From: an uncultured Gammaproteobacteria bacterium
Lineage (GTDB): Bacteria; Patescibacteriota; Patescibacteriia; 2-12-FULL-60-25
Direction of reading: 5' to 3'
DNA: 64,000 nucleotides
NCBI GenBank assembly: GCA_964623645.1
Contig: CAZURG010000002.1
Location: 8,041-72,040, forward strand
This document shows, piece by piece, positions 1-16,747 of this stretch. Numbering within the stretch: the first letter of the stretch is position 1; each line of letters begins with the position of its first letter. The translations under genes and the position numbers were made by a program. The notes beneath the pieces are model-generated. The model had not been told where the DNA came from and did no database searches. It saw only the letters and a program-made list of their open reading frames with translations.

Positions 1-1632
1 GTTCGTAAAAGTATGAATTGTCTCTCTAAAATACTCGATTATTGCTGGATATTTTACATATAGATAGGCAATCGCAAGTATATCTGAGAAACGAATGGAT
101 CTTATACGTGTCTGTTGTGAGTTCGCATATACGAACCTGCTTAGAATAAAACGCAGTTGATTGATTGTTCTATGTATAACACGCGGACTTTCTTTTATGA
201 GATATTCTGAAAACAAATGACTATATGCTTCAACGTGACTAGTCAAAAGCCCTTCTTCGGGATTTTTCCCGTGGGTGTAATTTGCAGGGTTGGGAATAAA
301 GTTCGAAGTACCAGTTTCGAGGGATTTCTGAGCGTCATTTTCTGAAAAATGAAATTCTTGAAACACGTTTCCAACTTGCTCAGCGATATACTCAGCTTTT
401 TTATCGACCGGGACGGGCGGAAGGTGGAACACGATGTCGATATTTTTTGGATCATTAAAAAGGTAGCTATTGATTAACTCCGCTTCTTCATTATGATTGC
501 TATTCCGAATGCGCTCCTGAAGCTCTCTAGGTGCGATACTTAAGATAAACGTAACGTAGATAGGTATGCCTTTTACGGCCAAATGTTTGATGCGCTCTAT
601 TATTTCGATAACGCGATATATTTCTGAGAATTTTGCTCTTTCGATTTCGTCTATAGTGATGATCCACTGATTTTCTTCAAACTCTGAAATGTTACCAAAG
701 TACTCAGCTACGTCGGACTGCGCATAGATCGTTGTGTCTGTACTGCCTTGTGGTTTTGCTTTCAATACTGTTGGAAATATTGATAGCTTCGATATTTGCG
801 AAAGAAGTTTTGACAAAATCCCGCCAAATTTTACTTCTTGAAGAGCACCATACAAAAAAGATCTGCTGGCTTCCTTCGCTGGAAGGATCTTCGGATAGCG
901 AGCTTGAATGGTATCCATCCATCTATTTGCAAAAAGTCGAGAAAAGTCACCCGCTTCATTTGTTTCAGTGAGAGATATGTGTGTATAGAGGGTCTTGTTA
1001 GCTTCCATTTCCTCTATAAGCATACGTACAAATGAAGACTTCCCGGAACCCAAGTCCCCATATACCGCTGAAACTGTTACCGGCGAATGTTTACTGGACG
1101 CAAGTTCAAGTATTTTCTCACGTACTTTTTCAGACGAGGATGAGAAGCCAAGTGCGTCATCCTTTTTTCCTACTGCTCCGGGAGAAAAGATGGCGTCTTT
1201 GAAAGAGTAGGCCTTCTTTCCCCAGTATTTGTATGCTGTTGAATGGAGTATCAATCCAAATACTGGATAGAGTAACGGCCAGGGACTAAATCCAAATCCC
1301 ATTAGAGATAAGATAATCTCTTTCCAGACGGGTACTAATAGAAAACTGTAAAATACATAGATGATCCAGGATGGATGTTGTCTTGATATCTGCGTTCGAA
1401 CTAGATCTTTTAATAGCGAGCTTCCCTTAGTTAAAGCAATCCATAAAATTGTAAGTAAAAACAAAACGAACCAAATGCCGCTGACACGACTGAAAAGAAA
1501 GCGCCAGAAGAAGTGATTAAAAAACCAATTGGTAAAAATGGCTAAACCTAGGCTAAGAATTGCCAGGGTCAACCAAAATTTTCCTGATGTGCGAACTCGT
1601 CCAATTTTAAATCCAAACATCTCATTTTCCAT
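1..1632 (-). CDS. KAP-family P-loop NTPase with an N-terminal 4-helix membrane anchor (3' end runs off the window)
   Basis: From my own reverse-strand translation. It is absent from the ORF track because its stop lies left of position 1. ATG at 1632 (alternative 1620) is preceded by an in-frame TAA. About four hydrophobic helices are followed by Walker A VYGDLGSGKSSF (~1036-1071) and Walker B NQWIITIDEIERAK (~631-672). This is the G-x-GSGKS and hhhhDE-x-x-R pattern of KAP NTPases. Confidence 0.7.
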   Translation of the reverse strand, partial: MENEMFGFKIGRVRTSGKFWLTLAILSLGLAIFTNWFFNHFFWRFLFSRVSGIWFVLFLLTILWIALTKGSSLLKDLVRTQISRQHPSWIIYVFYSFLLVPVWKEIILSLMGFGFSPWPLLYPVFGLILHSTAYKYWGKKAYSFKDAIFSPGAVGKKDDALGFSSSSEKVREKILELASSKHSPVTVSAVYGDLGSGKSSFVRMLIEEMEANKTLYTHISLTETNEAGDFSRLFANRWMDTIQARYPKILPAKEASRSFLYGALQEVKFGGILSKLLSQISKLSIFPTVLKAKPQGSTDTTIYAQSDVAEYFGNISEFEENQWIITIDEIERAKFSEIYRVIEIIERIKHLAVKGIPIYVTFILSIAPRELQERIRNSNHNEEAELINSYLFNDPKNIDIVFHLPPVPVDKKAEYIAEQVGNVFQEFHFSENDAQKSLETGTSNFIPNPANYTHGKNPEEGLLTSHVEAYSHLFSEYLIKESPRVIHRTINQLRFILSRFVYANSQQTRIRSIRFSDILAIAYLYVKYPAIIEYFRETIHTFTN

Positions 1633-1859
1633 AGCTTCAAACAGGCTATATCGATCGCATTATATACGCAATAAGCCTTCATTAAGCCCAAAGCTTCACT
1701 TTTAAGGGCTTCTAAGTTACCCTTATGACGTCTAGGTTCGAGTGTTAGAAACCCCAGTAGCAGGGCTAGCTTTGCTATATCAGGAGTCATTGACGCGCCG
1801 TAATGGGCACTCCTGATAAAACAAGCGCCAGAGACTCCGGTTTCTGACACTTGGGCCTA

Positions 1860-1887
1860 GACACCTCAGGGGTGTCCTTTTGTATTT
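1860..1887 (+). terminator. Rho-independent-like hairpin at the end of the 1633-1926 spacer
   Basis: gacacc-tcagg-ggtgtc followed by cttttgtattt on the + strand. No + strand CDS lies upstream, so it may close a leader or small RNA (see findings). Confidence 0.4.
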
Positions 1888-1926
1888 AGGCTTTCCTGAG
1901 TTTTACTCATTTGTCAGTAACTCTCT

Positions 1927-2511
1927 ATGGTCGTGGATTCAAAGACAGTAGGTTCATATCTAAAGAATAATAAAGTATTGTTGGCCGGCGTGTTGATTGC
2001 GCTCGCCCTCTCTTTCTATGGCGGGATGCGGTATCAGCAATACCGGTTCCAAAAAGCCGTGACGAGTGCGTTCGGCGAGCTCGGCAAAGCATTTGGCGAA
2101 GGCTTATCTGGTACTGGCTCAAGCGTGAAAGCAAGTGACACCAAGCCTAAAGAGAATCCGCTTAATGCAAAAGTTACTGTTGAGCTCCAGGAAAAGACAT
2201 TCGTGCCGGATGACTATTTCAGTCAGATCTCATTCAAACTTAAGCTCACGAACAAGACTGATAAAGCAATGAAAGGCGTTCAAGGGAAGCTTGTCTTCAA
2301 AGACATCTTTGATAACGAAATCAAGTCGGTAGGGGTGAGCTACGACAAGGCGATCCCGGTCGGAGAATCCAGGGTCTGGGAAGGCTCGATCTACTACAGT
2401 GAATCGTCTGCGGACGACGTGAAGCTTAAAGAAGCTAAACTCGCCGACCTCAAGTACGCTTGGGACACGAATACGATCGTTTTCGAGGACGGAACCAAGG
2501 AGACGAATTAA
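1927..2511 (+). CDS. Membrane-anchored or secreted hypothetical protein
   Basis: 194-aa ORF. N-terminal anchor VLLAGVLIALALSFYGGMRYQQY, then a K/D/E-rich, beta-rich-looking domain. The anchor motif is shared with the CDS at 52821-53258. Confidence 0.6.
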   Translation: MVVDSKTVGSYLKNNKVLLAGVLIALALSFYGGMRYQQYRFQKAVTSAFGELGKAFGEGLSGTGSSVKASDTKPKENPLNAKVTVELQEKTFVPDDYFSQISFKLKLTNKTDKAMKGVQGKLVFKDIFDNEIKSVGVSYDKAIPVGESRVWEGSIYYSESSADDVKLKEAKLADLKYAWDTNTIVFEDGTKETN

Positions 2512-2532
2512 CTATTCGTCTTTTTTCCTACT

Positions 2533-3462
2533 ATGCCTCTCCTAAAAATCCAGAACGATGTCCTATCTCTGTTGGAAGAGACCGACATCGCGCTTGAGAA
2601 AGACCTGCAAGCTCTTACCGAGAAGAATCTCGGTACTGTATTCGGTCTCGACTTCGTTTCGACGGAGTTCGCTCTCCAAGGGCTCCGCCTCGATACCGTC
2701 GCCTTCGATCCGGAGACGCGTTCGTTCGTCATTATCGAGTACAAGCGTGACCGGAGCTTCAGCGTCATCGACCAGGGCTTCGCATATCTCGCGCTCCTCC
2801 TCAATAACAAGGCAGATTTCCTGCTTGAATATAACGAGAAGCGGGGAGCGAGCTTGAAACGTGAAGAGGTCGATTGGAGCCAGAGTCGCGTGCTCTTTCT
2901 CGCCCAAAGCTTCACGGCGCACCAGCTCCAGGCCATCAACTTCAAAGATTTGCCGATCGAACTCTGGGAAGTCACGAAGTATGGGAATGAACTCATCTCA
3001 TACCATCAGATCGAAGCCAAGCAGTTCAGTGAGTCCCTGAAGACCGTGACGAAGAGCGAAGTCGTCTCGTCCGTGAGTCGGGAAGTCCGCGTCTACTCGA
3101 CTGATGAGATCGTAGGGAAGGCCAAGGGGTCGGTTCGCGACCTTATGGAAGCGTTTCGCGTACGTATCCTCGAACTCGATGGGCGTTTCGAGGAGAAGGC
3201 GAACAGCCAGTATCTTGCCTTCAAGATCAACCGACGGAACGTGCTCGCACTCACTCCTATGAAGGACGTGTTGCTCTTGAGCTTCCCCCGTATCGAACCC
3301 AAAGACCTGAACGATCCGTTGAAGCGGCTCGAGTCACGCGGTTCGGAAGAGGTATACGGCCAGAAGCTCACGGACATGAGTATCAAGGACGAGCACGATA
3401 TCCCGTATGCGCTTGAACTCGTGCAGCAGGTGATCGCTCGTCAGGATTCTTCCGCTTCTTGA
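2533..3462 (+). CDS. PD-(D/E)xK (NucS/DUF91-like) nuclease-fold protein with a DUF5655-like C-terminal domain
   Basis: 309-aa ORF. LDTVAFDPETRSFVIIEYKRD gives the D...E-x-K core typical of endonuclease NucS-like N-terminal modules. The C-terminal half resembles DUF5655 as I recall it. Confidence 0.6.
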   Translation: MPLLKIQNDVLSLLEETDIALEKDLQALTEKNLGTVFGLDFVSTEFALQGLRLDTVAFDPETRSFVIIEYKRDRSFSVIDQGFAYLALLLNNKADFLLEYNEKRGASLKREEVDWSQSRVLFLAQSFTAHQLQAINFKDLPIELWEVTKYGNELISYHQIEAKQFSESLKTVTKSEVVSSVSREVRVYSTDEIVGKAKGSVRDLMEAFRVRILELDGRFEEKANSQYLAFKINRRNVLALTPMKDVLLLSFPRIEPKDLNDPLKRLESRGSEEVYGQKLTDMSIKDEHDIPYALELVQQVIARQDSSAS

Positions 3463-3995
3463 TCGTCATCGTCTAAATCGTCATTAAGCTCGTATTTCTC
3501 AAGGAGCTTCAGAGTCTTCGCATTAAGCATCTCGTATCTCCCTTTCTTCTTTCCCGCTGGTATATTTGCCGGAGGGGGAACATATCCGGGAAGCCGTTTC
3601 ATAGCTTCGTCCAGAAAATCGATTTCTGGTCCATCGGACGATGCCTCACGCATGCGCGAAGGAGGTTTGTATCTCTCCTTATTATGATTTAGCCAGTAGG
3701 TCGAGGATTTATGGTCGCCACGCTTGATCCCAGCGATAATGTTGTTTTCCGCGAGGTCGTTAACAGTATCGATACTGATCGCCATCGCTTCGTCGACCTT
3801 TGTTCGGTACCTGTCGTCCTCGCTCATCCACTTATAGTGTGTCGAGCGAGAGATCTTCACCTTGCTGCACGCCGCTTCGACGATCGGATACTTTGAAAGC
3901 AGCTCGATCATAAGCTTCTTTGCCTGGCGAGCCCGAAGACGCTCCGGTTTGCGACCGGGAGGAGGGGAATGAGGCAAAGAAGCTTCAGGAGGCAT
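3441..3995 (-). CDS. Phage-type HTH protein (terminase-small-subunit-like or phBC6A51-type HTH)
   Basis: 184 aa. IVEAACSKVKISRSTHYKWMSEDDRYRTKVDEA...NNIIAGIKRGDHKSSTYWLNHNKERYKP matches the HTH plus helical pattern of small terminase-like proteins. It has an acidic tail. Its start at 3995 lies 1 nt from the upstream stop at 3997. Confidence 0.5.
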   Translation of the reverse strand: MPPEASLPHSPPPGRKPERLRARQAKKLMIELLSKYPIVEAACSKVKISRSTHYKWMSEDDRYRTKVDEAMAISIDTVNDLAENNIIAGIKRGDHKSSTYWLNHNKERYKPPSRMREASSDGPEIDFLDEAMKRLPGYVPPPANIPAGKKKGRYEMLNAKTLKLLEKYELNDDLDDDDQEAEES

Positions 3996-3996
3996 A

Positions 3997-4773
3997 TTAA
4001 ATCTTCACGGCGCTGATCCCCGTGAGTGTTTCGTAGCGTGTGATGATGGTGCGGCAATACTCAGGATCGAGTTCGATCGTGTACGCGCGACGTTTCGTCT
4101 GCTCACACCCAATCAAAGTAGATCCCGATCCCCCAAAGGGATCGTAGACCACGTCACCAATCTTCGAGCTGTTTAGGAGAAGCATCCGCAAAAGGCCGAT
4201 CGGCTTCATCGTGGGATGGAGTTTGCTCTTGTGTGGTTTGGGGTAGATGAGGACACTTTTGTCCTTAGAGCGTTGGAAAAGATGTGTCCCGTGCCAGCCA
4301 TAGGTGACAAGTTCGTGTTGGGGAAGATAATCCATCCGACCGATGATCGAATGGGTCTTCACCCAGATGAGAAGCTGCGTGAACTTGAAGCCCGCTTCGA
4401 GCAGCCCTTCCCGTAAGCTAAAAATCATCTTGTCCGAGTTGAAGATGTAGTAGGCGTTCTTCTTCGTGAGATGTTCCTTTACGGCCAAGAGCCAGTCCCG
4501 AGTGAAAGCGCTGTATTCTGCATCACTCTGGGCATGGTCATTCAGAATCGTCTTCGGTTTCGAAAGATGGTCGGCGATGCCCATCTTCGAGCTGACGTAA
4601 TCGATGCCATATGGGGGATCGGTCAGAATGAGGCTTGGCTGTGCACCCGCAAGGAGCGTACGTACCAGCGTCCGGTCTTTAGCGTCCCCGCAAGCTAATC
4701 GATGTTCGCCGAGCTTGAAGATGTCTCCAGGATTAACCGAGAAGGATGGCTTTGGTTCCGGTGAGTTTTTCAT
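3997..4773 (-). CDS. DNA methyltransferase, N6-adenine/N4-cytosine (N6_N4_Mtase family)
   Basis: 258 aa. Catalytic motif ILTDPPYGIDY and AdoMet motif DPFGGSGSTLIGCEQ. The N-terminal LGEHRLACGDA is typical of phage/plasmid ParB-associated methylases. Confidence 0.85.
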   Translation of the reverse strand: MKNSPEPKPSFSVNPGDIFKLGEHRLACGDAKDRTLVRTLLAGAQPSLILTDPPYGIDYVSSKMGIADHLSKPKTILNDHAQSDAEYSAFTRDWLLAVKEHLTKKNAYYIFNSDKMIFSLREGLLEAGFKFTQLLIWVKTHSIIGRMDYLPQHELVTYGWHGTHLFQRSKDKSVLIYPKPHKSKLHPTMKPIGLLRMLLLNSSKIGDVVYDPFGGSGSTLIGCEQTKRRAYTIELDPEYCRTIITRYETLTGISAVKI

Positions 4774-6013
4774 ATCGAGAGATGATGAGGTCGCAAAAGA
4801 TCGGTTCGATTTCGACCGTGTAGCAGATACGCTTCATTTGCTCGCAGGCGATGAGTGTTGAGCCCGAACCAGCAAAGAGATCAAGGACGATGTCGCCGAC
4901 GCGTGTACACCGTTTGAGGGCCTTCTCATGTAACGTCGGACTCTTTTCTGTGGGATGGGAATAATCCTGTCCCGGAAGGCGCTTCACGAGCCAGATGTTG
5001 AAGAGTTCCTCGATGTCCTCGAGCGTACGGTTTCCGATCCCAACTTCTTTATTTAGGACTTCGTTCAGGTTCTTGATGTCCGGGGAAAGATATGGCTTCC
5101 CTCGAATCGCGTAGACGCACGGTTCGTAGGCTTTGTTGAAGGCCGTGCCAGGGGTAACGTTAAAATTGTTTTTAATCCATAGGCATGTACGTTTCTTATC
5201 CAGTCCATGCTCTTTGAAGAGACTCTGCACAATGCCGACGTAGTTCTCATCGCACCAGTAGAAGACGTGGGCGTCTGGTTCCGTGACGAGAAGGGCGTTC
5301 CGCAATGTCGCCGCAAGGAAAGAGCGGTAGTCGGATTCAGAGAGGCTGTCGTTCGTTTTACCGCCGTACTTGCCCTTGGTTGAGACTCCATCGGTATAGC
5401 TTAAGCCGATGTTGTAGGGTGCATCGCTGTAAATAATGTTCGCGAGCTTTGTTCCCATGAGCTTCTTTACGACGGGCTCATCCGTGGAGCTACCACAAAG
5501 TAACCGATGTTCACCAAGGGCGTAGAGCTCACCGGGTTTTGTTTTAGGTTCCGTAATCTTCGAGATCTCTTTCTCTACATCGAACCCGTCATCGTCCGTT
5601 TCGAGCGTATCATTCCAAATACTCCCTAAGTCATCGTTATCAAACCCGACCTCAAGAAGTAGGGAAGTGTCGAACTCTTTGAGAAGGTCGTAATTCCAGT
5701 CGCCCACGTTTTTATTCAAGCGGAGGTTGAGCTCACGCTCTTTATCTTCCGCGAGCGAGACGTACACGACCGGGACCTCGGTGAGACCAAGTTCCTTCGC
5801 GACCGTCCAGCGAAAGTGACCACCAATGATGATACCTTTGCGATCTGGATGGATGTTAACGATAAGCGGGTCGACGAAGCCGAAGCGTTCGATGCTTTCG
5901 CGTAAGTGGCTCTTCGCGGCGTCGTCCCAGGTACGGGGATTCCAGGGGCAGGGCTTCAGGCTGTTGATGGGAGCCTGGATGACCTTCAGGGAGGTGATAG
6001 GAATGTTTGTCAT
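4733..6013 (-). CDS. ParB-like nuclease domain fused to an N6/N4 DNA methyltransferase
   Basis: The track ORF is 4733-6079. I prefer the internal ATG at 6013 (MTNIPITSLKVI). ParB_N motif: IIIGGHFRWTVAKELGLTEVPVVYV. Methylase motifs: IIYSDAPYNIG and DLFAGSGSTLIACEQ. It overlaps the next methylase gene by 41 nt. Confidence 0.85.
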   Translation of the reverse strand: MTNIPITSLKVIQAPINSLKPCPWNPRTWDDAAKSHLRESIERFGFVDPLIVNIHPDRKGIIIGGHFRWTVAKELGLTEVPVVYVSLAEDKERELNLRLNKNVGDWNYDLLKEFDTSLLLEVGFDNDDLGSIWNDTLETDDDGFDVEKEISKITEPKTKPGELYALGEHRLLCGSSTDEPVVKKLMGTKLANIIYSDAPYNIGLSYTDGVSTKGKYGGKTNDSLSESDYRSFLAATLRNALLVTEPDAHVFYWCDENYVGIVQSLFKEHGLDKKRTCLWIKNNFNVTPGTAFNKAYEPCVYAIRGKPYLSPDIKNLNEVLNKEVGIGNRTLEDIEELFNIWLVKRLPGQDYSHPTEKSPTLHEKALKRCTRVGDIVLDLFAGSGSTLIACEQMKRICYTVEIEPIFCDLIISRYEKLTGTKAILLG

Positions 6014-6053
6014 ACGGAATGAAGAAGAATAAAAATGGAGCGGAAACAAAAAC

Positions 6054-6121
6054 GTGCCCACTCCGTAGAGAGGGCACAAAAATCAAAAAAAGACTTTATG
6101 AATTCTCTACGGAGTGGGCAC
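6054..6121. repeat. 17-bp perfect inverted repeat (gtgcccactccgtagag / ctctacggagtgggcac) with a 34-nt spacer, nested with a shorter hairpin
   Basis: The arms are at 6054-6070 and 6105-6121. An inner gtgccc/gggcac hairpin is at 6054-6077. On the minus strand the structure is followed by gtttttgtttcc. It therefore probably terminates the 6236-6709 gene and/or acts as an operator upstream of the methylase operon. Confidence 0.6.
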
Positions 6122-6235
6122 GACCGAGGCAAAGCCTCTTCGACGCGTTAGACGCGTCTCCTATCGATCAAAAGATCGAAATGAGTGATACACCACTGAT
6201 GGTATATGACGTGAAATGAACTTGTTATGAGTATA

Positions 6236-6709
6236 TCATTTTCGCTTTTTCTTTTGCAAGGCGTCGTATTGCTCGTTCCAGTCATTTCCAAAGAATATCG
6301 GTACCCCTCCTTTTGGTACACAGAGACGTACAGCTTTTCCCTGCGATCTCGCTTTTTCCATGATCTCTTTGATCGGTCCGAGGGGTAGTTCTATGGTTGA
6401 TTGCCCAGTAAGATCCATGTCGCTGAGCACATTGCCGTCCGCGTAAGCTTGAAGAGATTTCCCATTTCGCATCGACTTTTCTACGCCTCGAGCAAACGTG
6501 GTATCCCCTCGCATTTTGGTTGCGTGTAACACAGCGTACCTAAGTGTAATAGCGACCTCTTTATCGGTTTCAGAGATATAAAATTGATCAGTCGATCCAC
6601 TTTTATTAGGAATTTCGGCAATTTCATCTGTCATTGGTCCGTTTGTGGCTACGAACTCGATGGATTCGGCGATGAGGGGAGATTTTTGGCTTTTGGATTG
6701 ATTGCGCAT
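6236..6709 (-). CDS. Hypothetical protein (157 aa), downstream partner of the HEPN-like gene
   Basis: The ORF starts 46 nt downstream of the 6756-7625 stop on the same strand. I recognise no motif. Confidence 0.55.
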   Translation of the reverse strand: MRNQSKSQKSPLIAESIEFVATNGPMTDEIAEIPNKSGSTDQFYISETDKEVAITLRYAVLHATKMRGDTTFARGVEKSMRNGKSLQAYADGNVLSDMDLTGQSTIELPLGPIKEIMEKARSQGKAVRLCVPKGGVPIFFGNDWNEQYDALQKKKRK

Positions 6710-6755
6710 ATTTAAACCCTATAACAAGGGTGTTTATTTGAGTAGAGAGGTATTT

Positions 6756-7625: not shown

Positions 7626-7725
7626 ATGAGTTGATAATAGGTAGAAATCGCCAAGTTATCAAACGATCCTTCTCTTCTACCTTTTCTAAACCGATGAGAT
7701 GCTAATATAGAATAAACTTTAACCT

Positions 7726-9252
7726 ATGCCCAAAAAATCCACGAAGAAACCACGAGTAACTAGAACCTACGGGCCGATCCATTTTGAGGATCTCGACCCA
7801 CATCGTTTTGAAGACCTAGTTCGCGAGTTAATCTATGATTATAAGGATTGGCAATCTATCGAAGCTACAGGAAGAGGTGGAAACGATGATGGTTTTGACA
7901 TTCGCGCTTATGAGAAGCAAAAGGTAGACCAGTCACAGCGGGAAGAGGATGGTGAGCAAAATGAACTGCACCCTATGCTCGGAAACCAGTGGATGATTCA
8001 AGGAAAAAGAGAGAAGGTGATTGGACCAAAACGCGTCGAGGAAATCATCGCTGATGTAGATGCTGAGAATCCTCCATACGGTTATATACTGGCGGCGTCA
8101 GCAAATTTTTCCAAAGATTCTTATGACACCTTTCGAGAAGAGTTGCGCAAGAAAGGAGTGATGGAGTTTCACTTATGGGGTAGGGCTGAATTGGAAGATA
8201 TGCTCCATTTTCCAAAGAATGATCATATACTTTTCACGTTTTTTGGCATTTCATTAGTCAGTAGAAAGCGATCTAGAACAACTGAGATACGGCGAGTGGT
8301 GATTCAGAAGAATAAGCTGTACAAACTGTTGGGAGAGGGACGTGGCGAGTTTCATCAATCTGTTCTTCTCAGAGATTCAAACGATGTTAACTATCCGTAT
8401 GAAGACGAGTATGGCGACTTTGATACCTTCCCTCGTTGGCGTGAATATAAGGCAATTAAGAATCATACTGATGGTGTTATTTTCGCTATACGCAAGCATT
8501 ACGCCTATATAGATAAAGAAAAGAAGGAGTATGACTACACTGAGGTGGTAAACCTGATTTACAGGGAAAGCGATTCGCAGGATAAAAAACAAAAGCAACA
8601 GGAGGATCGCAGAAAAGTGGAAAGCTTCTGGGAGTATTTACCCCGCCACAGTCAAGCAACTTTTATTAGGAATGGTTTAGTTCAATATGACGAAATCCTA
8701 GTTATTGATGAGAAAGGGGATAATGCATATGAATTCCCACATCTATTTGTTGACTTTAATGGTAGGAATTACCCATTCGCTGGAAGCTACGAATACTTAG
8801 ATGTGCAAGAGGATCAGATTTCTCTTAAAGATTATAAGCGTATAAAAAAGTTCCCCGATTCTTTTTTAGAACCTAGTATAGGAACGATACACGAAGACAA
8901 AAATATTACTTTAAGTAACCAACATTTCAGCATGTTAAAGAACGATAATGAAGAGTTTTTCGCACTTTATGATTTGGACGGTAGGTATAGCTTCCTTCAG
9001 TCCACGGATTTGTTAAAAATTGAAAACCAGGATCAAGGAAGTAGCTCTAATTACTATCTCCGAATTACTCATGTAGAGAGAGTGAATTTAGGAAAGTATC
9101 TTGAAAAGTACCCAAATCTAGAGTGGGCAATCGAGCGTCAGATAGAGGGAGGTCTCGATCTCGAAAAAACTTTAAACATCTGTGAGTTTAAAAAAACCTA
9201 TAGCTTCGTTGTAGAGCAAGAGAAGAGTAAGCGGGATAAGAAGAAATCGTGA
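7726..9252 (+). CDS. Protein with an N-terminal Mrr-like (restriction endonuclease, PD-(D/E)xK) domain and a ~340-aa unknown C-terminal region
   Basis: 508 aa. FEDLVRELIYDY...ATGRGGNDDGFDIRAY...WMIQGKRE matches the Mrr_cat pattern FE-x-L...G-x-DGG-x-D-I...Q-x-K. The C-terminal part is unrecognised. Confidence 0.65.
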   Translation: MPKKSTKKPRVTRTYGPIHFEDLDPHRFEDLVRELIYDYKDWQSIEATGRGGNDDGFDIRAYEKQKVDQSQREEDGEQNELHPMLGNQWMIQGKREKVIGPKRVEEIIADVDAENPPYGYILAASANFSKDSYDTFREELRKKGVMEFHLWGRAELEDMLHFPKNDHILFTFFGISLVSRKRSRTTEIRRVVIQKNKLYKLLGEGRGEFHQSVLLRDSNDVNYPYEDEYGDFDTFPRWREYKAIKNHTDGVIFAIRKHYAYIDKEKKEYDYTEVVNLIYRESDSQDKKQKQQEDRRKVESFWEYLPRHSQATFIRNGLVQYDEILVIDEKGDNAYEFPHLFVDFNGRNYPFAGSYEYLDVQEDQISLKDYKRIKKFPDSFLEPSIGTIHEDKNITLSNQHFSMLKNDNEEFFALYDLDGRYSFLQSTDLLKIENQDQGSSSNYYLRITHVERVNLGKYLEKYPNLEWAIERQIEGGLDLEKTLNICEFKKTYSFVVEQEKSKRDKKKS

Positions 9253-9255
9253 ATT

Positions 9256-9813
9256 TCAAATCCTTAAGATTTTCGCCTCATTCCACGCCGTCCAAGGAGT
9301 CTCGCGATAGCGAGCCAGGTTCTCTTCCGATGGATTCAAGATAAAGCCAATCCCATCTCGATGCTCGCGTTGAACAAGGAAAGTCATGCCAGTCGTCCCT
9401 TCAACAACCATCCATCTTAGGACTGAGTTCTTTGGGGACTTCTCTCGCGTATACCCAATGAGCTTGGCGAGTTCATCGAAGTTATCGTGCTGTTGCCACC
9501 AGTCTCGTGAATACCCTTTGCTTACCCCTGCGTGAGAGGGGATGGATTCGTGTTCCTTCGGGTCTTCTTTGTGGTTTAGATATGCGAGAATGTCTGTTCG
9601 ACGGAAAAGAAGCTTTCCAGCTACGCGGTAAACGTTCACGGCATGTCGATCGATCATACGTCTCACAACCTTTTCCTCCACTTCCAGCGTTTGAGCTAGT
9701 TCTGGAGTATCGAGGAATTCGACATCCTCTTGTAAGAGGAGTGAGTCAGGTTTCTTAAATACGGCTGGATCGATGCCAAATGCGTCAGGAGTGTTGGGTT
9801 TGAATAGCGGCAT
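9256..9813 (-). CDS. Excisionase/MerR-type HTH (HTH_17-like) protein with an unknown C-terminal domain
   Basis: 185 aa. LDTPELAQTLEVEEKVVRRMIDRHAVNVYRVAGKLLFRRTDILAYL is an HTH_17-like segment. Its start lies 1 nt after the stop of the upstream 87-aa gene. Confidence 0.55.
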   Translation of the reverse strand: MPLFKPNTPDAFGIDPAVFKKPDSLLLQEDVEFLDTPELAQTLEVEEKVVRRMIDRHAVNVYRVAGKLLFRRTDILAYLNHKEDPKEHESIPSHAGVSKGYSRDWWQQHDNFDELAKLIGYTREKSPKNSVLRWMVVEGTTGMTFLVQREHRDGIGFILNPSEENLARYRETPWTAWNEAKILRI

Positions 9814-9814
9814 A

Positions 9815-10078
9815 TTATTGATTCCAGCGAGGAGTCATTCCACGTTCAACTAAGGCAATGACTTCATCGTACTTAAAAAGACGTTTTCGGAGCACTCGAT
9901 AACAAGCGATCTGTCCAGAATCGGCAAGGCGATAAACGCTGGCGGTGGAGATTCTTAAAAGTTTACCGACTTCCTTAACCGTCATGAGGCGAAGATCGGG
10001 CTTTGGGGTGTTTGATGGCGTTGGATTCTTCGTTGATCCACTACCATTGGATCTTGTGTTTGTAGAACGAAAGGCCAT
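9815..10078 (-). CDS. Excisionase-family DNA-binding protein (HTH_17)
   Basis: 87 aa. LMTVKEVGKLLRISTASVYRLADSGQIACYRVLRKRLFKYDEVIALVE is a classic AlpA/Xis-type HTH. Confidence 0.7.
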   Translation of the reverse strand: MAFRSTNTRSNGSGSTKNPTPSNTPKPDLRLMTVKEVGKLLRISTASVYRLADSGQIACYRVLRKRLFKYDEVIALVERGMTPRWNQ

Positions 10079-10144
10079 AGGACGTTCTGTAAGGGGAGTT
10101 AGAAGAGTTCAATTACTAGTCTATACCTAAGTCTTAAAACGCCA

Positions 10145-10166
10145 AACGCCGCACGGATGCGGCGTT
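10145..10166 (-). terminator. GC-rich 9-bp hairpin with a tetraloop (aacgccgca-cgga-tgcggcgtt)
   Basis: Perfect stem. On the minus strand it is followed by tggcgttttaag. It sits in a short GC-rich patch (10141-10205) inside an AT-rich spacer. Confidence 0.35.
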
Positions 10167-10476
10167 CAGGCGACTCCTTTACCCAGCCTCATCGGCGACG
10201 CACCTTCACATATTAATGAGAATTAATAAGCAAGATCGCAAAAAGGAGTATTTAAAATTTTACAGCTTATTCCAGTGAACGCAAGACGTTCCACGTTTTC
10301 TTTAGAATGAATTCGGCTCAGTTATGGTAAGTCACGGTCACTGATCCTAACGATCATTTTTTTGTAATGTATCAGCTTGCTTTTTAGAAGCTCTTAGAGT
10401 CATATAGTGCTGATATAGTCTTAAATACGCTTTGAAAAAGCCGCCATTCGCTGAATCTAAAACGTCATGTTTCTCT

Positions 10477-12258
10477 ATGCCTAAAGATAAACAAAAGAAG
10501 AGTAATATCGCGATTTGGCGAATCGACACGAACCTTGAGGTTTGTTTGAATAAGAGCACTGATGAAATCATTCAAATGATCCAGCGGGTTTATACGAAAC
10601 GAGACTTGACCCCGCTGCCGTTCAATGGGACCTCCTATGAAGGGAAGAACGTGAAGGGTTTTCAAGCTGCTAGGTATTCAGATGGTCTTCAAGTCTTTTT
10701 AGCGCCCTTGTTACGCTCTGGCTTGTCTGATGAAGATAAGAATAGACTTTTTTCAAGTGTTAACAAAGACATCGTGCTGTTTATTTACGATGAAAGCGAC
10801 ATTTTTGCTGTGACGAGTGGAACGGGATATTCAATCATTCAGAACTACTTAGACGAACGCTTCCCATTCGAGATTGCAAAAAGGATGTTGAAGGGCGACT
10901 TTAAGAGTGCAGAGATGCGCGGTCTTACTGGCTTGGTATATGCGCAATCAAGGAACTTTCGACGAGATTACAATTTTTCTCGTAAGGAAGCCTTCGGTAA
11001 GGTATGGAAAAAGCTAACAGGAAGTATCGATCCGGCTGTACTAGAGGGTAGTGCATTCATTCGTGATTTTTTATCCGACGACAGTGGAAAAAAGATTAAT
11101 GCAGACGTAAAGTCGTCTTTCACTTTTCGTAAGACAATCAATCTTAAACAGGTTTTTTCCGCTGTGAAAGAGCTGCAGAGCCTACTTTCTAAAGATCTGA
11201 CGACGGATCAGGCTAATGCTTTTATCTTTCTAGATACCCTCAAAGAGGTCACTAAGCAGGAAACGAAGGAAGTCTTGAAAGAGGCGCTAGTTACGGAGCT
11301 GTATAGCTTTGTGAGTTCTTCCGATAGCCAAGAGTGCGATTATGACTTCTGCCATCCAAAAGAGATGACCAAATTCCTCTACGGAACAGACTATAAAATA
11401 TCCCGAGATCTTACGTGGGAGGATGCGCCATCTTCAGCAGAAGTTCTGATGAAGATTCGTAATTCAGATAAGATAGATAAAAGCAGTCTAGAGAACTTCA
11501 AGGAAGCATTCTTTGGTTTGTCCATGAGCTTTCTGGAGGAGGATGAAGGATTGATGCATAGTGACGATCTTTGGAAATACTTTCATGGTGAAGTTGAGCA
11601 AGGGGATAAGAAGTATTTCCTAATCGACGGAAAGTTCTACGAGGTGATTGGTGAGTTCTTAAAGACCCTCGGAACGGATTTTGAGGACTGCGTCTTCGGA
11701 GATGACTCTATTTTGACTAGCGCCATTCCACTGAACAAATGGGATCCTGCGGAAGATGAGTCGGACTATAATGAAAGGCAAGGGAAGGTAGATCTTTTCT
11801 ACTTTGGCGACAAGGTGTTCTTAAAGAAAGGGACAAAAGGGAAGATCGAGCTTTTTGATCTTCTGTACGTGCAAGATGGAAAGGCCTACATCATCCAGGT
11901 AAAAGACGGTTTCGGGGCTTCTATTCGAGATGCTTGCTCACAGATTCAAATGGCAGCCGAGATTATCGAGCACGATCTTCAAGTCGTGAATAACCCAGAG
12001 TTGAGTCGATACTTTGTAGAGTTTAGTAAGCTAAACCATGGTCTAGATCGGAAGCAATTTTTAGAGCTTCTTAGGTTAGAGCGCCACTACGTGCTTGCAT
12101 CTGCTACAAGACAGGAATTTACTAAAGAAGCCTTTAAGAAAGGGATGTTTAAGTCTGAAATAGCAAAATTCGAAGTTTTAGGAGTGGCTCATGAATTCAA
12201 AGCTAATGACTACAAGTTCCATCTTGCCCGTATTGAGCGCGTTAGTGGTCGAGTATAG
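10477..12258 (+). CDS. DUF6119/TIGR04141-like 'sporadically distributed' protein with a C-terminal PD-(D/E)xK-like motif
   Basis: The track ORF starts at TTG 10432. The first ATG is at 10477 (MPKDKQKKSNIAIWRI). IVLFIYDESDIFAVTSGTGYSIIQNYLDERFPFEIAKRML...RGLTGLVYAQSRNFRRDYNFS follows the family pattern as I remember it. ELFDLLYVQDGKAYIIQVKDG (11857-11904) gives D...Q-x-K. Confidence 0.55.
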   Translation: MPKDKQKKSNIAIWRIDTNLEVCLNKSTDEIIQMIQRVYTKRDLTPLPFNGTSYEGKNVKGFQAARYSDGLQVFLAPLLRSGLSDEDKNRLFSSVNKDIVLFIYDESDIFAVTSGTGYSIIQNYLDERFPFEIAKRMLKGDFKSAEMRGLTGLVYAQSRNFRRDYNFSRKEAFGKVWKKLTGSIDPAVLEGSAFIRDFLSDDSGKKINADVKSSFTFRKTINLKQVFSAVKELQSLLSKDLTTDQANAFIFLDTLKEVTKQETKEVLKEALVTELYSFVSSSDSQECDYDFCHPKEMTKFLYGTDYKISRDLTWEDAPSSAEVLMKIRNSDKIDKSSLENFKEAFFGLSMSFLEEDEGLMHSDDLWKYFHGEVEQGDKKYFLIDGKFYEVIGEFLKTLGTDFEDCVFGDDSILTSAIPLNKWDPAEDESDYNERQGKVDLFYFGDKVFLKKGTKGKIELFDLLYVQDGKAYIIQVKDGFGASIRDACSQIQMAAEIIEHDLQVVNNPELSRYFVEFSKLNHGLDRKQFLELLRLERHYVLASATRQEFTKEAFKKGMFKSEIAKFEVLGVAHEFKANDYKFHLARIERVSGRV

Positions 12259-12309
12259 ACTTCCGCTAATATTTAGTAAGAGTAAGATTGATTAAATTGT
12301 GAAAATGCT

Positions 12310-12819
12310 ATGGAACAAGCAGAGTTATTGGGTAAAGTAAAATCAGCTGTAAAAAAGTTGATCGTAGATGATGCTCACTTACTGACATATAGCGTTTCCG
12401 AGAGGAGTATTTGTCACCAATTAGCGATATATCTCGCCGCGGAGTTTGCGGGGTATTCGGTTGATTGTGAATACAATCGGCACGAAGATGTTTCAAAAAG
12501 ATTAAGCTTCAAATTAGACGATTCGCAGACACCTCGTGATCCAGATGACCATGGAGTTTGTGTTTCACCAGACATAATTATTCATGAAAGAGGTACTGAC
12601 GCGCGTAACCTGCTCGTCATTGAGCTAAAGAAAGATAGTAACCCTTTAAGGAAGGGCGACTACGATCTTAAGAAAATCCGAGCGTATGTAGATGAGATAG
12701 GTTATGATTTTGGTCTGTTTATCGAGCTTGGCACTGGTGAGAATATAGGTATGAAAGATGCTGAGTTAGCGACTAAAGAATCCGATAAGCTGGTTAACGT
12801 ACTCTCGATCTTGTCATAG
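12310..12819 (+). CDS. Small PD-(D/E)xK nuclease-fold protein
   Basis: 169 aa. It starts 51 nt after the DUF6119-like gene with no hairpin between them. Motifs: SERSICHQLAIYL...DCEYNR...SPDIIIHERGTDARNLLVIELKK (D...E-x-K). Confidence 0.55.
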   Translation: MEQAELLGKVKSAVKKLIVDDAHLLTYSVSERSICHQLAIYLAAEFAGYSVDCEYNRHEDVSKRLSFKLDDSQTPRDPDDHGVCVSPDIIIHERGTDARNLLVIELKKDSNPLRKGDYDLKKIRAYVDEIGYDFGLFIELGTGENIGMKDAELATKESDKLVNVLSILS

Positions 12820-12831
12820 CTCATAAGTTGT

Positions 12832-13350
12832 TTAGTTTGCGACTTGTCCGATTCCGGGATTTTCTGATTTAAGAAACACATATTCATACGGCTTTCCTTC
12901 CTTATTCAGAATAATACGCGCTTTAAGCTCACCTTTTCGTACCATTTTCCTCACGGTAGCCGAATGTAGTTTGAACTTGCTCTCAAGTTCCCACATGAGC
13001 CATCTGCTATCGCGATCCGTGAAGACTTCGGGGGGAACGATCCCTTCATCTAGCGCCCTTTGACAATCTAGACATTTTTGCCCGTATTTATCGTACCAGC
13101 TCGAGTCTCCACTGATGGTCACGTGACAAAGAATGCAGCTATACGTCCCATCTGTTAGATGGAATCCATTCGGGTGCTCTTTAAGCATCTCTTCACGCCT
13201 GGTCTCTCTTTGAGAGATTTTAAGCAGAAGTCCGAAGAATCCAATAAGGGGGATGGCCTCTGCTTTGGCTCTATCGTCGCTGATTTCCTCTCCAAACGAC
13301 TCTTTCCAGACTTCCTTGAACTCATCGATTGCTTTTTGGGGTAATTGCAT
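12832..13350 (-). CDS. Zinc-ribbon plus HTH_17-like DNA-binding protein
   Basis: 172 aa. CILCH...CLDCQ (CxxC...CxxC), then WLMWELESKFKLHSATVRKMVRKGELKARIIL (HTH). It is convergent with the 12310-12819 gene and divergent from the nucleotidyltransferase cassette. Confidence 0.55.
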   Translation of the reverse strand: MQLPQKAIDEFKEVWKESFGEEISDDRAKAEAIPLIGFFGLLLKISQRETRREEMLKEHPNGFHLTDGTYSCILCHVTISGDSSWYDKYGQKCLDCQRALDEGIVPPEVFTDRDSRWLMWELESKFKLHSATVRKMVRKGELKARIILNKEGKPYEYVFLKSENPGIGQVAN

Positions 13351-13429
13351 ATAATGCTAGATTATTTCTCTAATTGCCCTGGTTACAACCCCTCCAAACA
13401 CCCCGGCAAAACTCTTTGGAATCGTGTAC

Positions 13430-13530
13430 GATTTGTCCGATTTCCAGCATGACCCACATGCCTCAAAACCCCTCCCGAAAGTCCCTCAAGCTCCTTGCAA
13501 AGCCGAGTTCTGTACCCGCCCGTCGAGCCA
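13430..13530 (+). repeat. Direct repeat copy 1 (~100 nt) upstream of the nucleotidyltransferase gene
   Basis: It starts with gatttgtccgatttc and ends with cgtcgagcca. It aligns along its length with 14443-14540, roughly two-thirds to three-quarters identical by eye. Shared blocks: gatttgtccgatttc, acccacat, aaag-ccct, gtcgagcca. Confidence 0.7.
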
Positions 13531-13535
13531 TGAGC

Positions 13536-13597
13536 GACAGTGTCTGGCGACCCAGACACTGTCAGTCAAAAAAGCACCACAAACGTGGTGCTTTTTT
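13536..13597 (+). terminator. Tandem hairpins, the second a bidirectional rho-independent terminator
   Basis: gacagtgtctgg-cgac-ccagacactgtc (12-bp stem, 13536-13563), then aaaaaa-gcaccac-aaac-gtggtgc-tttttt (13568-13597). Confidence 0.65.
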
Positions 13598-13641
13598 GTT
13601 GTTTGGCATTGGGCTGGTCAAGAGCTATATTATCGGTTGAT

Positions 13642-14427
13642 ATGTCTCAAATTGATCTACGATCGGTCCTTGATCATCTCTCGCATTCACCAAAAGTAAA
13701 AGCCATTTTCACAACAGGCACAACCGCTTCTGGATTAGGGCCATCGAGCGATATCGATCTTGTAGTTATCTTAGAAAAAAATGATGCAGGTATAAAGTCA
13801 GCCTACGCAATGATCGAAAACCGTTTCGCTGACATCTTTTTCTTTGATTTGGATTTTGTGAAAAAGGTGGCGCAGTTAGAGAAAATCTCTGCTAATGGTT
13901 TTGAAGGCATATTTATAACATGGCTAGCGAAAGGAAGGATCGAAAAAGATGAAAACGGACTTTTGTCAGAACTAAAAGCGAAATCAGAATCCAAGTCGCA
14001 CGCGCTTAGTATCTCTTTGGAAGAAAAACAAGATAATTGGTTCAAAATAAATTATAACTTCATCGCCAATCAGCGGTATTTTCATTCTAAGGATAACTTG
14101 TATCACACCGCTTTGGAAATCAGGCTTCTTTATAGTGTCAGTGAATTGATTGTGGCGTATTTTTCTCTGCGAGGTATTCCATGGAGAGGGGAAAAAGAAG
14201 CTGTAAAGTATCTCGAATCGAATGATGCGGAAGCGCTCAAGGTTTTCATTGATTATACAAAGAGTCAATCGCTTGCAGATAGATTCCGTTCATACCAAGC
14301 GCTCTTCAAGGTGGTATTGTATGGTGATTTTCAAGTATGGGATAAAGATTTCATGGTCGTGAAAGATGTGAAGAATCAAATCAATGAGACATCGGCTAGC
14401 TATATACAAGAGCTGATTGGGAAATAG
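13642..14427 (+). CDS. Pol-beta-superfamily nucleotidyltransferase with a helical C-terminal domain (KNTase/ANT-like architecture)
   Basis: The track ORF is 13540-14427. The upstream part runs through the terminators, so I use the ATG at 13642 (MSQIDLRSV). TTGTTASGLGPSSDIDLVVIL is the G-S...D-x-D NTase signature. Confidence 0.7.
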   Translation: MSQIDLRSVLDHLSHSPKVKAIFTTGTTASGLGPSSDIDLVVILEKNDAGIKSAYAMIENRFADIFFFDLDFVKKVAQLEKISANGFEGIFITWLAKGRIEKDENGLLSELKAKSESKSHALSISLEEKQDNWFKINYNFIANQRYFHSKDNLYHTALEIRLLYSVSELIVAYFSLRGIPWRGEKEAVKYLESNDAEALKVFIDYTKSQSLADRFRSYQALFKVVLYGDFQVWDKDFMVVKDVKNQINETSASYIQELIGK

Positions 14428-14442
14428 GGTTAAGCGGTATGT

Positions 14443-14540
14443 GATTTGTCCGATTTCTCACATAACCCACATCCGTTAAAAAACTTCTTTAAAGCCCTAA
14501 GAAGCCCTTAATAAACGAGCTCTTATCAGCCGTCGAGCCA
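14443..14540 (+). repeat. Direct repeat copy 2, immediately downstream of the nucleotidyltransferase stop
   Basis: See copy 1. It begins 16 nt after the TAG at 14425-14427 and runs straight into the terminator at 14541. Confidence 0.7.
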
Positions 14541-14598
14541 AAAAATCTCCGCTAGAAATAGCGGAGATTTTTTAATGCCCTAAATGGGTTTCGGAATG
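14541..14598 (+). terminator. Bidirectional terminator plus conserved 3' motif (copy A of a second repeat family)
   Basis: aaaaatctccgc-tagaaata-gcggagatttttt, then aatgccctaaatgggtttcggaatg. Compare 16688-16747. Confidence 0.6.
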
Positions 14599-14840
14599 AT
14601 ATAATGGTTTACAATATATTTTATGGGCATGATCTCTATTCTAGCAGAGGAGATGCTAGTCTAGGGCCTAAAAATCTTCCTCTAATTCTTCGAGTGGGGT
14701 TTTAGTGGCAAATCAGAAAGTTTTCGTAGTTCACATGCCAGCTTTTTATCCTCGGCAAGGGAGTTCTGAAGTAGGGAATTTAACAACTCGCAACACCATT
14801 TCTTTTACGCTCTCCGAAATGTAACCTTGGGTTTAGTGGT

Positions 14841-15258
14841 ATGAAATTTGAACAAGCGCAACCCCAAGAAACAAAAAGAGATCTTACGGCTTTGCTGCGC
14901 TCCGCTGATGAGGAGCGGCGAATCCGCAAAGAAATAAAGACATGGCCCGTTTACACGCTCGAAGCCCGTGATGGCGAAAGGGGTATTTTTATTCACGGAG
15001 ACAGGCACGCATACGATCTTGCTAGCGTACAACAGATGAAGGCGGAATTTGAGCAAAGACGTCCGGACATTGTTTTGGTTGAGCATACGTACCCATGGAA
15101 AGACATTTTCAAAGATCAAGATCCTATTTGGCGGTGTTAGCGCGTCTCCAAACGTGTGTGTTCAAGACGCAAAGCTCTGTCCCGATGGCTCGGCGGTCGG
15201 CCGTACGGGTCCCAACTGTGAATTTGGGGCATGCCCTTCGCGAGCGTTGGTCCAATAA
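14841..15258 (+). pseudogene. Two abutting out-of-frame ORF fragments, likely decayed genes
   Basis: The 99-aa ORF (14841-15140) contains IFIHGDRHAYDLASVQQMKAEFEQRRPDIVLVEH, which resembles only the N-terminal motif of TraB/GumN-type proteins, and it stops early. In another frame (15157-15258), CVQDAKLCPDGSAVGRTGPNCEFGACPS looks like a Cys-rich module normally preceded by a signal anchor, but here it lacks one. Confidence 0.35.
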
Positions 15259-16687: not shown

Positions 16688-16747
16688 AAAAATCTCCGTC
16701 ATCTTTGCTTGACGGAGATTTTTCATCCCCCAAATGGGATTGGAACG
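16688..16747 (+). terminator. Terminator plus conserved 3' motif (copy B of the 14541-14598 repeat)
   Basis: aaaaatctccgtc-atctttgctt-gacggagattttt, then catcccccaaatgggattggaacg. It shares the stem sequence and the a-t-N-ccc-N-aaatggg-N-tt-N-ggaa-N-g tail with copy A. Confidence 0.6.

Follow-up and report, generated by a model that had tools for sequence, protein, structure and literature searches.

The window analysed here is a stretch of 64,000 nucleotides of contig CAZURG010000002.1 (C2:8041-72040), part of a metagenome-assembled genome (MAG) that we call G000—1.23 Mb in 66 contigs, with a guanine-plus-cytosine (GC) content of 0.605; a further 8 kb of the contig lie to the left of the window. 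At its left end is a low-GC block, which is the subject of this report: a composite island that begins directly at the 3' end of tRNA-Asn, a single-copy gene in this genome, consists of two units delimited by attachment (att) sites, and encodes a large serine recombinase (LSR). Positions prefixed C2 refer to the contig, and unprefixed positions to the window. The host is an ultra-small bacterium of the candidate phyla radiation (CPR, or Patescibacteria), a group with tiny genomes and few classical defences. For one ABC-F protein of the chromosomal backbone, the closest named relatives are 'Patescibacteria group bacterium' MAGs (60-68% identity), followed by Magasanikbacteria and Uhrbacteria (about 48-50% identity); the genomes of the class-level relatives are 0.7-1.4 Mb in every case. 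The comparison set includes four genomes of the same genus (G001, G004, G005, and G008), two at the family level (G010 and G013), and G031, an independent MAG from another study in which the tRNA-Asn locus lies inside a 438-kb contig.

The block stands out by composition. In 1-kb intervals, GC is 0.39-0.52 over positions 1-15000, against 0.58-0.70 beyond about 17 kb; across the whole genome such intervals average 0.605 (standard deviation 0.041), and 32 of the 43 that fall below 0.48 are on C2. Measured against the genome profile, the tetranucleotide distance is 0.38-0.81 within the block and 0.18-0.36 elsewhere, while GC at third codon positions (GC3) is 0.36-0.46 in the cargo genes described below and about 0.70 in the genes of the chromosomal backbone. 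The island as a whole has a GC of about 0.42, with an intermediate stretch at 1.9-6.1 kb (GC 0.48-0.54, GC3 0.55-0.70). Taken together, these contrasts mark the block as foreign and internally mosaic—as the initial annotation, made from the letters alone, had proposed, down to the intermediate-GC stretch at ~1.9-6.1 kb. That annotation had placed the block at 1-14600; its right edge stands, within 60 bp of the att boundary at 14540, and its left edge does not, lying 4.66 kb further to the left. The low-GC block is C2:3382-22580 (window -4658 to 14540), 19.2 kb long, of which 4,658 bp precede the window. GC falls from about C2:3400, immediately past the tRNA gene, and the left edge is the exact 3' end of tRNA-Asn(GTT) (C2:3307-3381, plus strand). 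The right edge is at 14540 by att structure, and near 15,130 by composition. The annotation had also seen no integrase in the window and had placed any mobility module to its left, which is where the tRNA-Asn gene and the LSR gene (C2:5354-6658) are found. A search for tandem or CRISPR-like repeats in the block found none, in line with its remark that no CRISPR was present.

Alignment and a k-mer scan identified an 83-bp direct repeat (82/83 positions identical) that brackets the larger unit of the island, the two copies being 18,189 bp apart. The left copy, attL (C2:3376-3458), starts in the last 6 nt of tRNA-Asn, GAGCCA; the right copy (13525-13607, plus strand; C2:21565-21647) consists of GAGCCA, a hairpin with a 12-bp stem (A-type), and a terminator. 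Overlapping the right copy is the right-end motif (RE) of the larger unit, RE1 (13424-13530, plus strand), a pseudo-tRNA 3' half with the GAGCCA core that would form the P arm of attP. A more diverged motif, RE2 (14437-14540, plus strand; 72-75% identity to RE1), also ends in GAGCCA and is followed, with no element hairpin in between, by a plain terminator hairpin with a perfect 15-bp stem (about 14541-14573, plus strand). The island is thus made of two head-to-tail units, an 18,189-bp element and a 1,010-bp cassette without a recombinase, in the order tRNA, unit 1, RE1-GAGCCA, unit 2 (with a nucleotidyltransferase gene), RE2-GAGCCA, and plain terminator. The composite ends on its right at RE2, and the terminator beyond it is read as the displaced original terminator of tRNA-Asn, which would be the B' side of attB. 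These exact limits and the two-unit structure go beyond the initial annotation.

The RE motif is ~107 nt long, and its last 30 nt resemble the T-arm and the acceptor 3' strand of a tRNA, ending in GAGCCA; its 3' end reads GAGTTC...CCCGCCCGTCGAGCCA, and the tRNA-Asn counterpart is GGGTTCGAATCCCTGCCCCGGAGCCA. A tRNA gene on one side and a displaced tRNA-like fragment on the other therefore flank the island, as in Islander-type islands. Eight copies of the motif occur in six genomes (two each in G000 and G031, one each in G001, G004, G005, and G010), with a mean identity of 77%. As a structured RNA the motif was rejected: the consensus folds at just -1.4 kcal/mol, covariation is essentially lacking, and Rfam has no match; hence our reading of the motif as a DNA site. 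In six genomes the att junctions are defined to the exact base. At empty sites (G008 and G013), tRNA...GAGCCA runs at once into a simple terminator; at occupied left junctions, the next feature is an element-borne hairpin with a terminator. G010 and G031 have a B-type hairpin there, and the A-type is found in G000, G001, and G005. In the terminal right junctions (G000 RE2 and G005), RE...GTCGAGCCA leads into the plain terminator; the terminator of G005 is very similar to its counterpart at G008, where the site is empty. Comparison of empty and occupied junctions shows that attB and attP share nothing but the 6-bp GAGCCA; insertion therefore leaves the tRNA intact. The internal copy of the 83-bp repeat could be explained if unit 1 had inserted beside a related resident unit with the same P' arm. 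The left end of the element also holds a tRNA-like fragment, AGTTCGAATCCCACCCAGG (C2:3540-3566, window about -4500 to -4474), and shares 81% identity over its first 187 nt with the corresponding end of a G031 cassette that carries a PD-T4-6 kinase.

Relatives differ at this site, and a comparison for presence or absence, as the initial annotation had suggested, finds the block missing from two of them: the tRNA-Asn of the same-genus genome G008 has neither the element nor low-GC DNA, and the site is empty in the family-level genome G013. Other relatives hold different cassettes there. In G031, the tRNA-Asn gene is followed by a stack of roughly 40 kb made of two full elements (19.3 and 19.5 kb), both ending in RE-GAGCCA, and a 1.5-kb cassette. 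At the nucleotide level, unit 1 of G000 is 88.7% identical over 8.4 kb and 93.1% over 1.0 kb to the first of these elements (element A), while the aligned backbones of the two genomes near the site are about 71% identical. The element has sharp boundaries and terminal repeats, occurs in stacks, is absent from these two relatives, and has spread horizontally in recent times.

Several further observations concern this site. The LSR gene of the second element of G031 is broken into open reading frames (ORFs) of 101, 125, and 137 aa (G031:C1:285817-286901, locus L043), with 94% identity to the LSR of G000 over its first 101 residues. At the end of the stack is a decayed tRNA 3' fragment, GGTTCGATAAGCTCCCTGAGAGCCA, followed by an A-type arm (G031:C1:301030-301133, L044), which looks like a displaced older attL. 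In G005, the 3' half of tRNA-Asn recurs without a mismatch at about 7923-8039 of locus L030 and continues into an A-type arm, with no ARAGORN call of a tRNA; possibly its 5' half is damaged or lost. Synteny between genomes breaks at tRNA-Asn (C2:1-3300 against L015, L018, and L019). In G008, G010, and G013, the genes of the left flank of G000 lie across the tRNA and are inverted, and the upstream flank of the tRNA-Asn of G031 matches the end of another contig of G000, C26 (C26:9332-17038).

The LSR (434 aa; C2:5354-6658, minus strand) is the only recombinase of the island and the only LSR in the genome. It has Resolvase (1.2e-20), Recombinase (2.2e-13), and Zn_ribbon_recom (1e-6) domains and is intact, with the serine nucleophile in the Resolvase domain (residues 15-159), the motif YVRKSSEQSERQ, and the catalytic YVRKSSEQ region. 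Homologues of this protein are tied to tRNA genes. In 12 of the 15 loci inspected, the LSR gene is convergent to a tRNA gene within 4.3 kb, and the tRNAs concerned are Asn (four loci), Gln (two), Ser-CGA (two), Ser-GGA, Gly, Arg, and Met; these seven types argue against one inherited arrangement. With 45 tRNAs in 1.23 Mb, the chance of such linkage is 0.078 per locus, giving a P of about 2e-11, although the loci are not fully independent. Between G000 and G031 the LSRs are 68% identical overall, with about 95% identity over residues 1-180, the catalytic domain, and about 48% over the DNA-binding half. The P' arms of the two genomes (A- and B-type) differ as well, a pattern consistent with the arm being recognised by the domains of that half.

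The rest of the element consists of conserved genes with variable cargo between them. As judged by amino acid identity between unit 1 of G000 and element A of G031, the intermediate-GC stretch, the KAP gene, and a pair of HTH_17 genes are a conserved element backbone, not a random mosaic. Besides the LSR, this backbone comprises a KAP NTPase, a 194-aa protein with PDC-S18, a helix-turn-helix (HTH) protein resembling the small terminase TerS, two orphan methylases, and two HTH_17 proteins. The KAP-family P-loop NTPase (979 aa, N-terminal transmembrane helices; C2:6733-9672, minus strand) straddles the left end of the window, where 1-1632 encode its N-terminal 544 codons; it matches Pfam KAP_NTPase (1.6e-11 / 4.8e-11), as first annotated, has the Walker A motif GDLGSGKS, and is 94% identical to its counterpart in G031. 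Next is a predicted membrane-anchored protein of 194 aa (1927-2511, plus strand; phrog_16659, 5e-7; 65% identity), whose gene is 22 nt upstream of that of PDC-S18 on the same strand. PDC-S18 (2533-3462, plus strand; 97% identity) matches PADLOC model PDLC04945 (1.9e-97) over residues 1-301 of 302, with an N-terminal D...EYK motif and a C-terminal DUF5655 (Pfam 2.3e-5); the family is a candidate single-gene defence system. The 184-aa HTH protein (3441-3995, minus strand; 94% identity) matches phrog_4044 (2.6e-6) and phrog_4102 (terS, 8.6e-6) over residues 9-93 only, and is 37% identical to a homologue beside a ParB-methylase gene in a distant element (L039).

The two methylases expected from the initial annotation are both of the N6_N4 type. 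The first (258 aa; 3997-4773, minus strand; N6_N4_Mtase 1.4e-28, PADLOC MTase_II 1.1e-59) is 93% identical to that of G031; the second is a fusion of ParB_N (8.8e-10) and an N6/N4 methyltransferase (6.7e-28) of 448 aa (4733-6079, minus strand), with identities of 89% to G031, 63% to L038, and 34% to L039. This fusion recurs together with an LSR in L038 and L039, both distant elements at tRNA-Gln, and the TerS-like gene recurs in L039. No cognate restriction endonuclease is adjacent to either methylase, which agrees with the earlier remark that no endonuclease-methylase pair is present and leaves the locus outside the definition of a type II restriction-modification system. The HTH_17 proteins are encoded side by side on the minus strand: one of 185 aa (9256-9813; HTH_17 of the excisionase/MerR type, 7.8e-7; phrog_66; 97.8% identity), a candidate regulator or directionality factor, and one of 87 aa (9815-10078; HTH_17 1e-10; phrog_66 'excisionase and transcriptional regulator', 7.5e-8; 97.7% identity), a candidate recombination directionality factor. 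The pair, with two weaker HTH proteins, accounts for the four HTH proteins first reported.

Three slots between the backbone genes hold contents that are unrelated in G000 and element A of G031, and on this comparison the nuclease genes that had seemed odd at first sight sit in exchangeable positions. Slot 1, which precedes the window, encodes proteins of 144 aa (C2:3667-4101, plus strand) and 396 aa (C2:4145-5335, plus strand), the latter with a weak GapS1 match and a PD...ECK motif; the slot in element A encodes one protein of 350 aa. Slot 2 encodes a 157-aa protein, a 289-aa protein with an RNxxxH motif, and an Mrr-type protein of 508 aa, in place of a 195-aa protein, HEPN_Cthe2314, and DUF5677 in element A. 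In slot 3 are a DUF6119 protein, a PD-Lambda-3_A-like protein of 169 aa, and a 172-aa protein, in place of Shedu, an 80-aa protein, a 271-aa protein, GNAT, APH, and a 315-aa protein.

In slot 2, the 157-aa gene (6236-6709, minus strand) is downstream of the 289-aa gene, has no match to any profile hidden Markov model (HMM), and is absent from element A of G031. The 289-aa helical protein (6756-7625, minus strand) has no Pfam hit. It had been called HEPN-like, and this holds in part: R190, N191, and H195 are invariant in 16 homologues, as expected of the Rx4-6H motif of HEPN proteins, while the fold search was not significant. An alignment-based AF2 model is all-helical with a mean confidence (pLDDT) of 77.6, against 36 for the single-sequence model, and its best match in the PDB (E 0.34, TM 0.21) is not significant, so the HEPN label is unproven. 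In two other loci (L057 and L058), 289-aa homologues are closely followed by small genes on the same strand (199 aa and 113 aa), like the 157-aa gene here. The Mrr-type protein (7726-9252, plus strand) has a PD-(D/E)xK domain (Mrr_cat 7.5e-7, residues 22-159), is of a modification-dependent type, is encoded apart from the methylases, and is also absent from element A.

Slot 3 begins with a 608-aa DUF6119 protein (10432-12258, plus strand; DUF6119 2e-23; TIGR04141, 'sporadically distributed', 6.3e-19). It has a nuclease-like C-terminal D...QVK motif, a match to RE_EcoO109I of 0.0035 over residues 466-497, and no PADLOC hit, and we found nothing related in the literature on DUF6119. The small nuclease-like protein (169 aa, PD...ELK; 12310-12819, plus strand) matches PADLOC PD-Lambda-3_A (1.8e-30). 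PD-lambda-3 is described as an abortive-infection system (PMC13190303), and complete PD-lambda-3 systems are reported from Proteobacteria only (bioRxiv 10.1101/2024.10.26.620412); here, no island protein has a PADLOC hit to component B, so that the 169-aa protein stands alone rather than in the two-component system. A conserved pairing of the DUF6119 and 169-aa genes was considered and is not supported, as DUF6119 is in none of the five neighbourhoods of the 169-aa family (0/5). Members of this family have an upstream gene on the same strand in five of five genomes, a different gene each time; in Sedimenticola (L048, genes 1668-3854 and 4001-4483), the homologue is directly downstream of a 728-aa KAP NTPase. 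The slot ends with a 172-aa protein with a Cys-rich centre (12832-13350, minus strand) and a weak C-terminal HTH (HTH_17, 0.0086 only).

The initial annotation had counted at least four PD-(D/E)xK proteins; firm HMM support exists for Mrr_cat only, and in the others—PDC-S18, the PD-Lambda-3_A homologue, the C-terminus of the DUF6119 protein, and, left of the window, the 396-aa protein—the motif was seen by eye and by regular expression only. Sequence searches of the PDB with the 289-aa, DUF6119, nucleotidyltransferase, and 396-aa proteins gave nothing useful. The remark that most genes fall outside described systems agrees with PADLOC, which reports only PDC-S18, the lone PD-Lambda-3_A, and orphan type II methylases.

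The second unit carries a single gene, for the pol-beta-type nucleotidyltransferase first recognised by eye (NTase; 261 aa from the ATG at 13642, 13642-14427, plus strand). Its match to NTP_transf_2 (1.9e-4, 22.2 bits) is barely above the cut-off of 21; it has a GS...DID motif and is preceded by a promoter-like site at 13603-13631. A 295-aa version of the ORF from a GTG at 13540 would run through the 83-bp repeat. Similar mini-elements without a recombinase are found at tRNA-Asn in other genomes, with PDC-S33/RelA_SpoT in G001, Abi_alpha/PDC-S47 in G004, the PD-T4-6 kinase in G031, and SET and RibD_C in G005. Across slots and cassettes, the predicted cargo is mostly of a defence type.

With these features in place, we think it likely that we are dealing with a composite integrative island, borne by the LSR to the 3' end of the sole tRNA-Asn and carrying swappable defence-type genes. 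The LSR, encoded 2 kb inside the left end, would recombine attP with the chromosomal attB; attP would be the RE with its pseudo-tRNA 3' arm, GAGCCA, and the element-borne hairpin and terminator, and attB the 3' end of tRNA-Asn, GAGCCA, and the native terminator. By such events, two related units would have accumulated head to tail, the 18.2-kb element with the LSR and the 1.0-kb NTase cassette without it. We infer that the LSR catalyses integration, that the HTH_17 proteins control excision, that the orphan methylases protect incoming element DNA, and that the slot genes act in anti-phage defence.

Some points weigh against this account. The LSR gene is 2 kb from attL and not at the end of the element, the 83-bp repeat is longer than the core of a serine integrase, and in the DNA examined at more distant LSR loci, displaced repeats or far-end tRNA repeats were not found. 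Since attL and attR are no targets of canonical serine integrases, head-to-tail stacking requires a relaxed rule or another route. As for cargo, SET and RibD_C in the G005 mini-element do not look like defence genes, the fold search gave the HEPN reading no significant match, and most cargo genes have no experimental or HMM link to defence.

A wider and much more tentative proposal is that this clade of patescibacterial LSRs has radiated over many tRNA 3' ends by means of an attP arm that mimics the 3' half of a tRNA, and that it works as a capture platform in the manner of an integron. Cassettes without a recombinase, each with one to three defence genes and closed by an RE, would be captured and moved in trans, and tolerance of hybrid sites would let the system build arrays of cassettes. 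We regard this as possible, though doubtful.

Among the alternatives, the one that survives best is that the island is a phage satellite, similar to the phage-inducible chromosomal islands (PICIs), or a decayed prophage. The TerS-like and ParB-methylase genes would then be remains of packaging, and the element would spread in the capsids of a helper phage. The 184-aa protein does match small-terminase PHROGs over its N-terminal HTH, the ParB-methylase, TerS-like, and LSR genes come together again in L038 and L039, and no relaxase, coupling protein, or conjugation and type IV secretion genes were found among the island ORFs in scans with Pfam (ORFs of 70 aa or more), PHROGs, and NCBIfam. Against this, the TerS match is limited to an HTH, and the scans revealed no large terminase, portal, capsid, or tail gene among island ORFs of at least 70 aa. 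Scans of the island ORFs detected no primase or replication module either, and six-frame searches with Terminase_6N and TerL_ATPase were empty in G000, G031, G032, and G033, with control genomes responding. A 420-aa gene of L038 was considered as a large terminase and rejected, as it is a histidine kinase. A satellite-type transfer route is not supported in this copy, and we think it unlikely; since it concerns transfer from cell to cell, it would be compatible with LSR-driven integration at the tRNA.

Less probable still is a static defence hotspot, in which genes would gather beside tRNA-Asn through transformation or homologous recombination, the recombinase and repeats being relics with no remaining activity. 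Ready uptake of DNA has been ascribed to CPR bacteria, different cargo occupies the same site among relatives, and the second LSR of G031 is broken. An intact LSR in G000, junctions exact to the base in six genomes, an RE motif conserved although the cargo differs, and a core that is 89-93% identical between genomes whose backbones are at about 71% all speak against this reading, and we judge a hotspot of this kind improbable.

That a tyrosine integrase, acting in trans or since lost, made the insertion and that the LSR is cargo or a resolvase seems very unlikely to us. tRNA genes are classic landing sites of tyrosine integrases, and an 83-bp repeat is long for the site of a serine integrase; however, the genome has one gene with a Phage_integrase domain, on contig C3 and not on C2, and there is none among the scanned genes of the slots of G031 element A or of the mini-elements. 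The LSR clade is itself linked to tRNAs (12/15 loci), and attB and attP have only 6 bp in common. Finally, a chimera of assembly or binning, in which a low-GC piece of another organism was joined to the MAG, might be suggested by the 66 contigs and by the GC of about 0.42 against 0.605, but is scarcely credible given backbone DNA on both sides of the island within one contig, junctions that fall exactly at the tRNA end and the displaced terminator, and the same element at the same tRNA in the independent G031.

By analogy, the island read in this way—as one integrated by its LSR—is closest in organisation to the composite islands of the staphylococcal cassette chromosome (SCC) type. In SCC and SCCmec, integration by a large serine recombinase (Ccr) takes place at the extreme 3' end of a housekeeping gene that is conserved, the units are marked by short core repeats, head-to-tail stacking includes units without a recombinase (pseudo-SCC), and the cargo is accessory and defensive. 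Units demarcated by repeats are likewise found here, of 18,189 and 1,010 bp in G000 and three in number in G031. Unlike SCC, which uses rlmH, the island has a tRNA end (GAGCCA) as its target; its host belongs to the CPR, its attP has a mimic of the tRNA 3' half of ~107 nt, there is one recombinase gene in place of the ccrAB pair, and the backbone includes ParB-methylase and TerS-like genes. We see a known kind of island, SCC-like and composite, in an unusual form: in CPR bacteria, with tRNA ends as the likely target of a serine recombinase.

Other systems share some of these traits. Islander-type islands and streptococcal integrative and conjugative elements (ICEs), with their cis-mobilizable relatives (CIMEs), also lie between a tRNA gene, which stays intact, and a displaced tRNA-like fragment, and ICEs and CIMEs accrete in tandem with att-bounded units that have no integrase; however, they use tyrosine integrases, of which the island has none, its attB and attP are identical over only 6 bp, and no conjugation or relaxase genes were seen in the island scans. 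PICIs (including those of Staphylococcus aureus, SaPIs) and P4-like satellites are small integrative elements with an integrase and a TerS-like gene, and hold anti-phage systems in variable slots between conserved backbone genes. They differ in that the island scans detected no large terminase, capsid-remodelling, or primase/replication module, and in that the TerS similarity here is confined to the HTH. The serine integrases of phiC31, Bxb1, A118, and SPbeta (SprA) have the same Resolvase, Recombinase, and Zn-ribbon domains, a short attP/attB core, and small accessory proteins nearby as potential directionality factors; known ones target protein-coding or intergenic sites, in contrast to a clade that adjoins at least seven tRNA types, and the stacking seen here implies that hybrid sites are tolerated.

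Genomic islands with defence genes have been described in Patescibacteria in general terms, without analysis of integrases or tRNAs (PMC12455944), and we found no description of this type of element in the literature. Serine recombinases of one clade that are linked to the 3' ends of tRNA genes and use a 6-bp core with a portable arm of ~107 nt would extend the known natural landing pads by a new class. The element also shows how CPR bacteria gain and swap candidate anti-phage genes, its core being about 90% identical between genomes whose backbones are about 71% identical. Among its contents, candidate defence genes include DUF6119 with the small nuclease, the RNxxxH protein with its partner, the Mrr-type gene, the gene with the weak GapS1 match, and the NTase.

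Beyond the att boundary, about 560 bp of residual low-GC DNA (14574-15130) with a 99-aa ORF (14841-15140) follow the plain terminator in the GC profile, and backbone homology to G013 picks up again near 15112. By tblastx, C2:23152-23277 matches sequence near the tRNA-Asn of G013. The low-GC DNA past 14540 is probably a remnant of an older insertion. Two stretches of terminator plus tail, 14541-14598 and 16688-16747, are 72% identical over 29 nt with similar stems and flank a tspO/SRPBCC block of intermediate GC; they may be a trace of an older insertion. Elsewhere in the window, a 370-aa ORF without a Pfam hit (56912-58024) occupies an isolated 1-kb patch with a GC of 0.44 and could be a small insertion. 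The only other stretches of G000 below 0.48 GC are C4:47000-49500, C7:37000-38500, C11:5500-6500, and C32:1-1000, which may be further small acquired segments.

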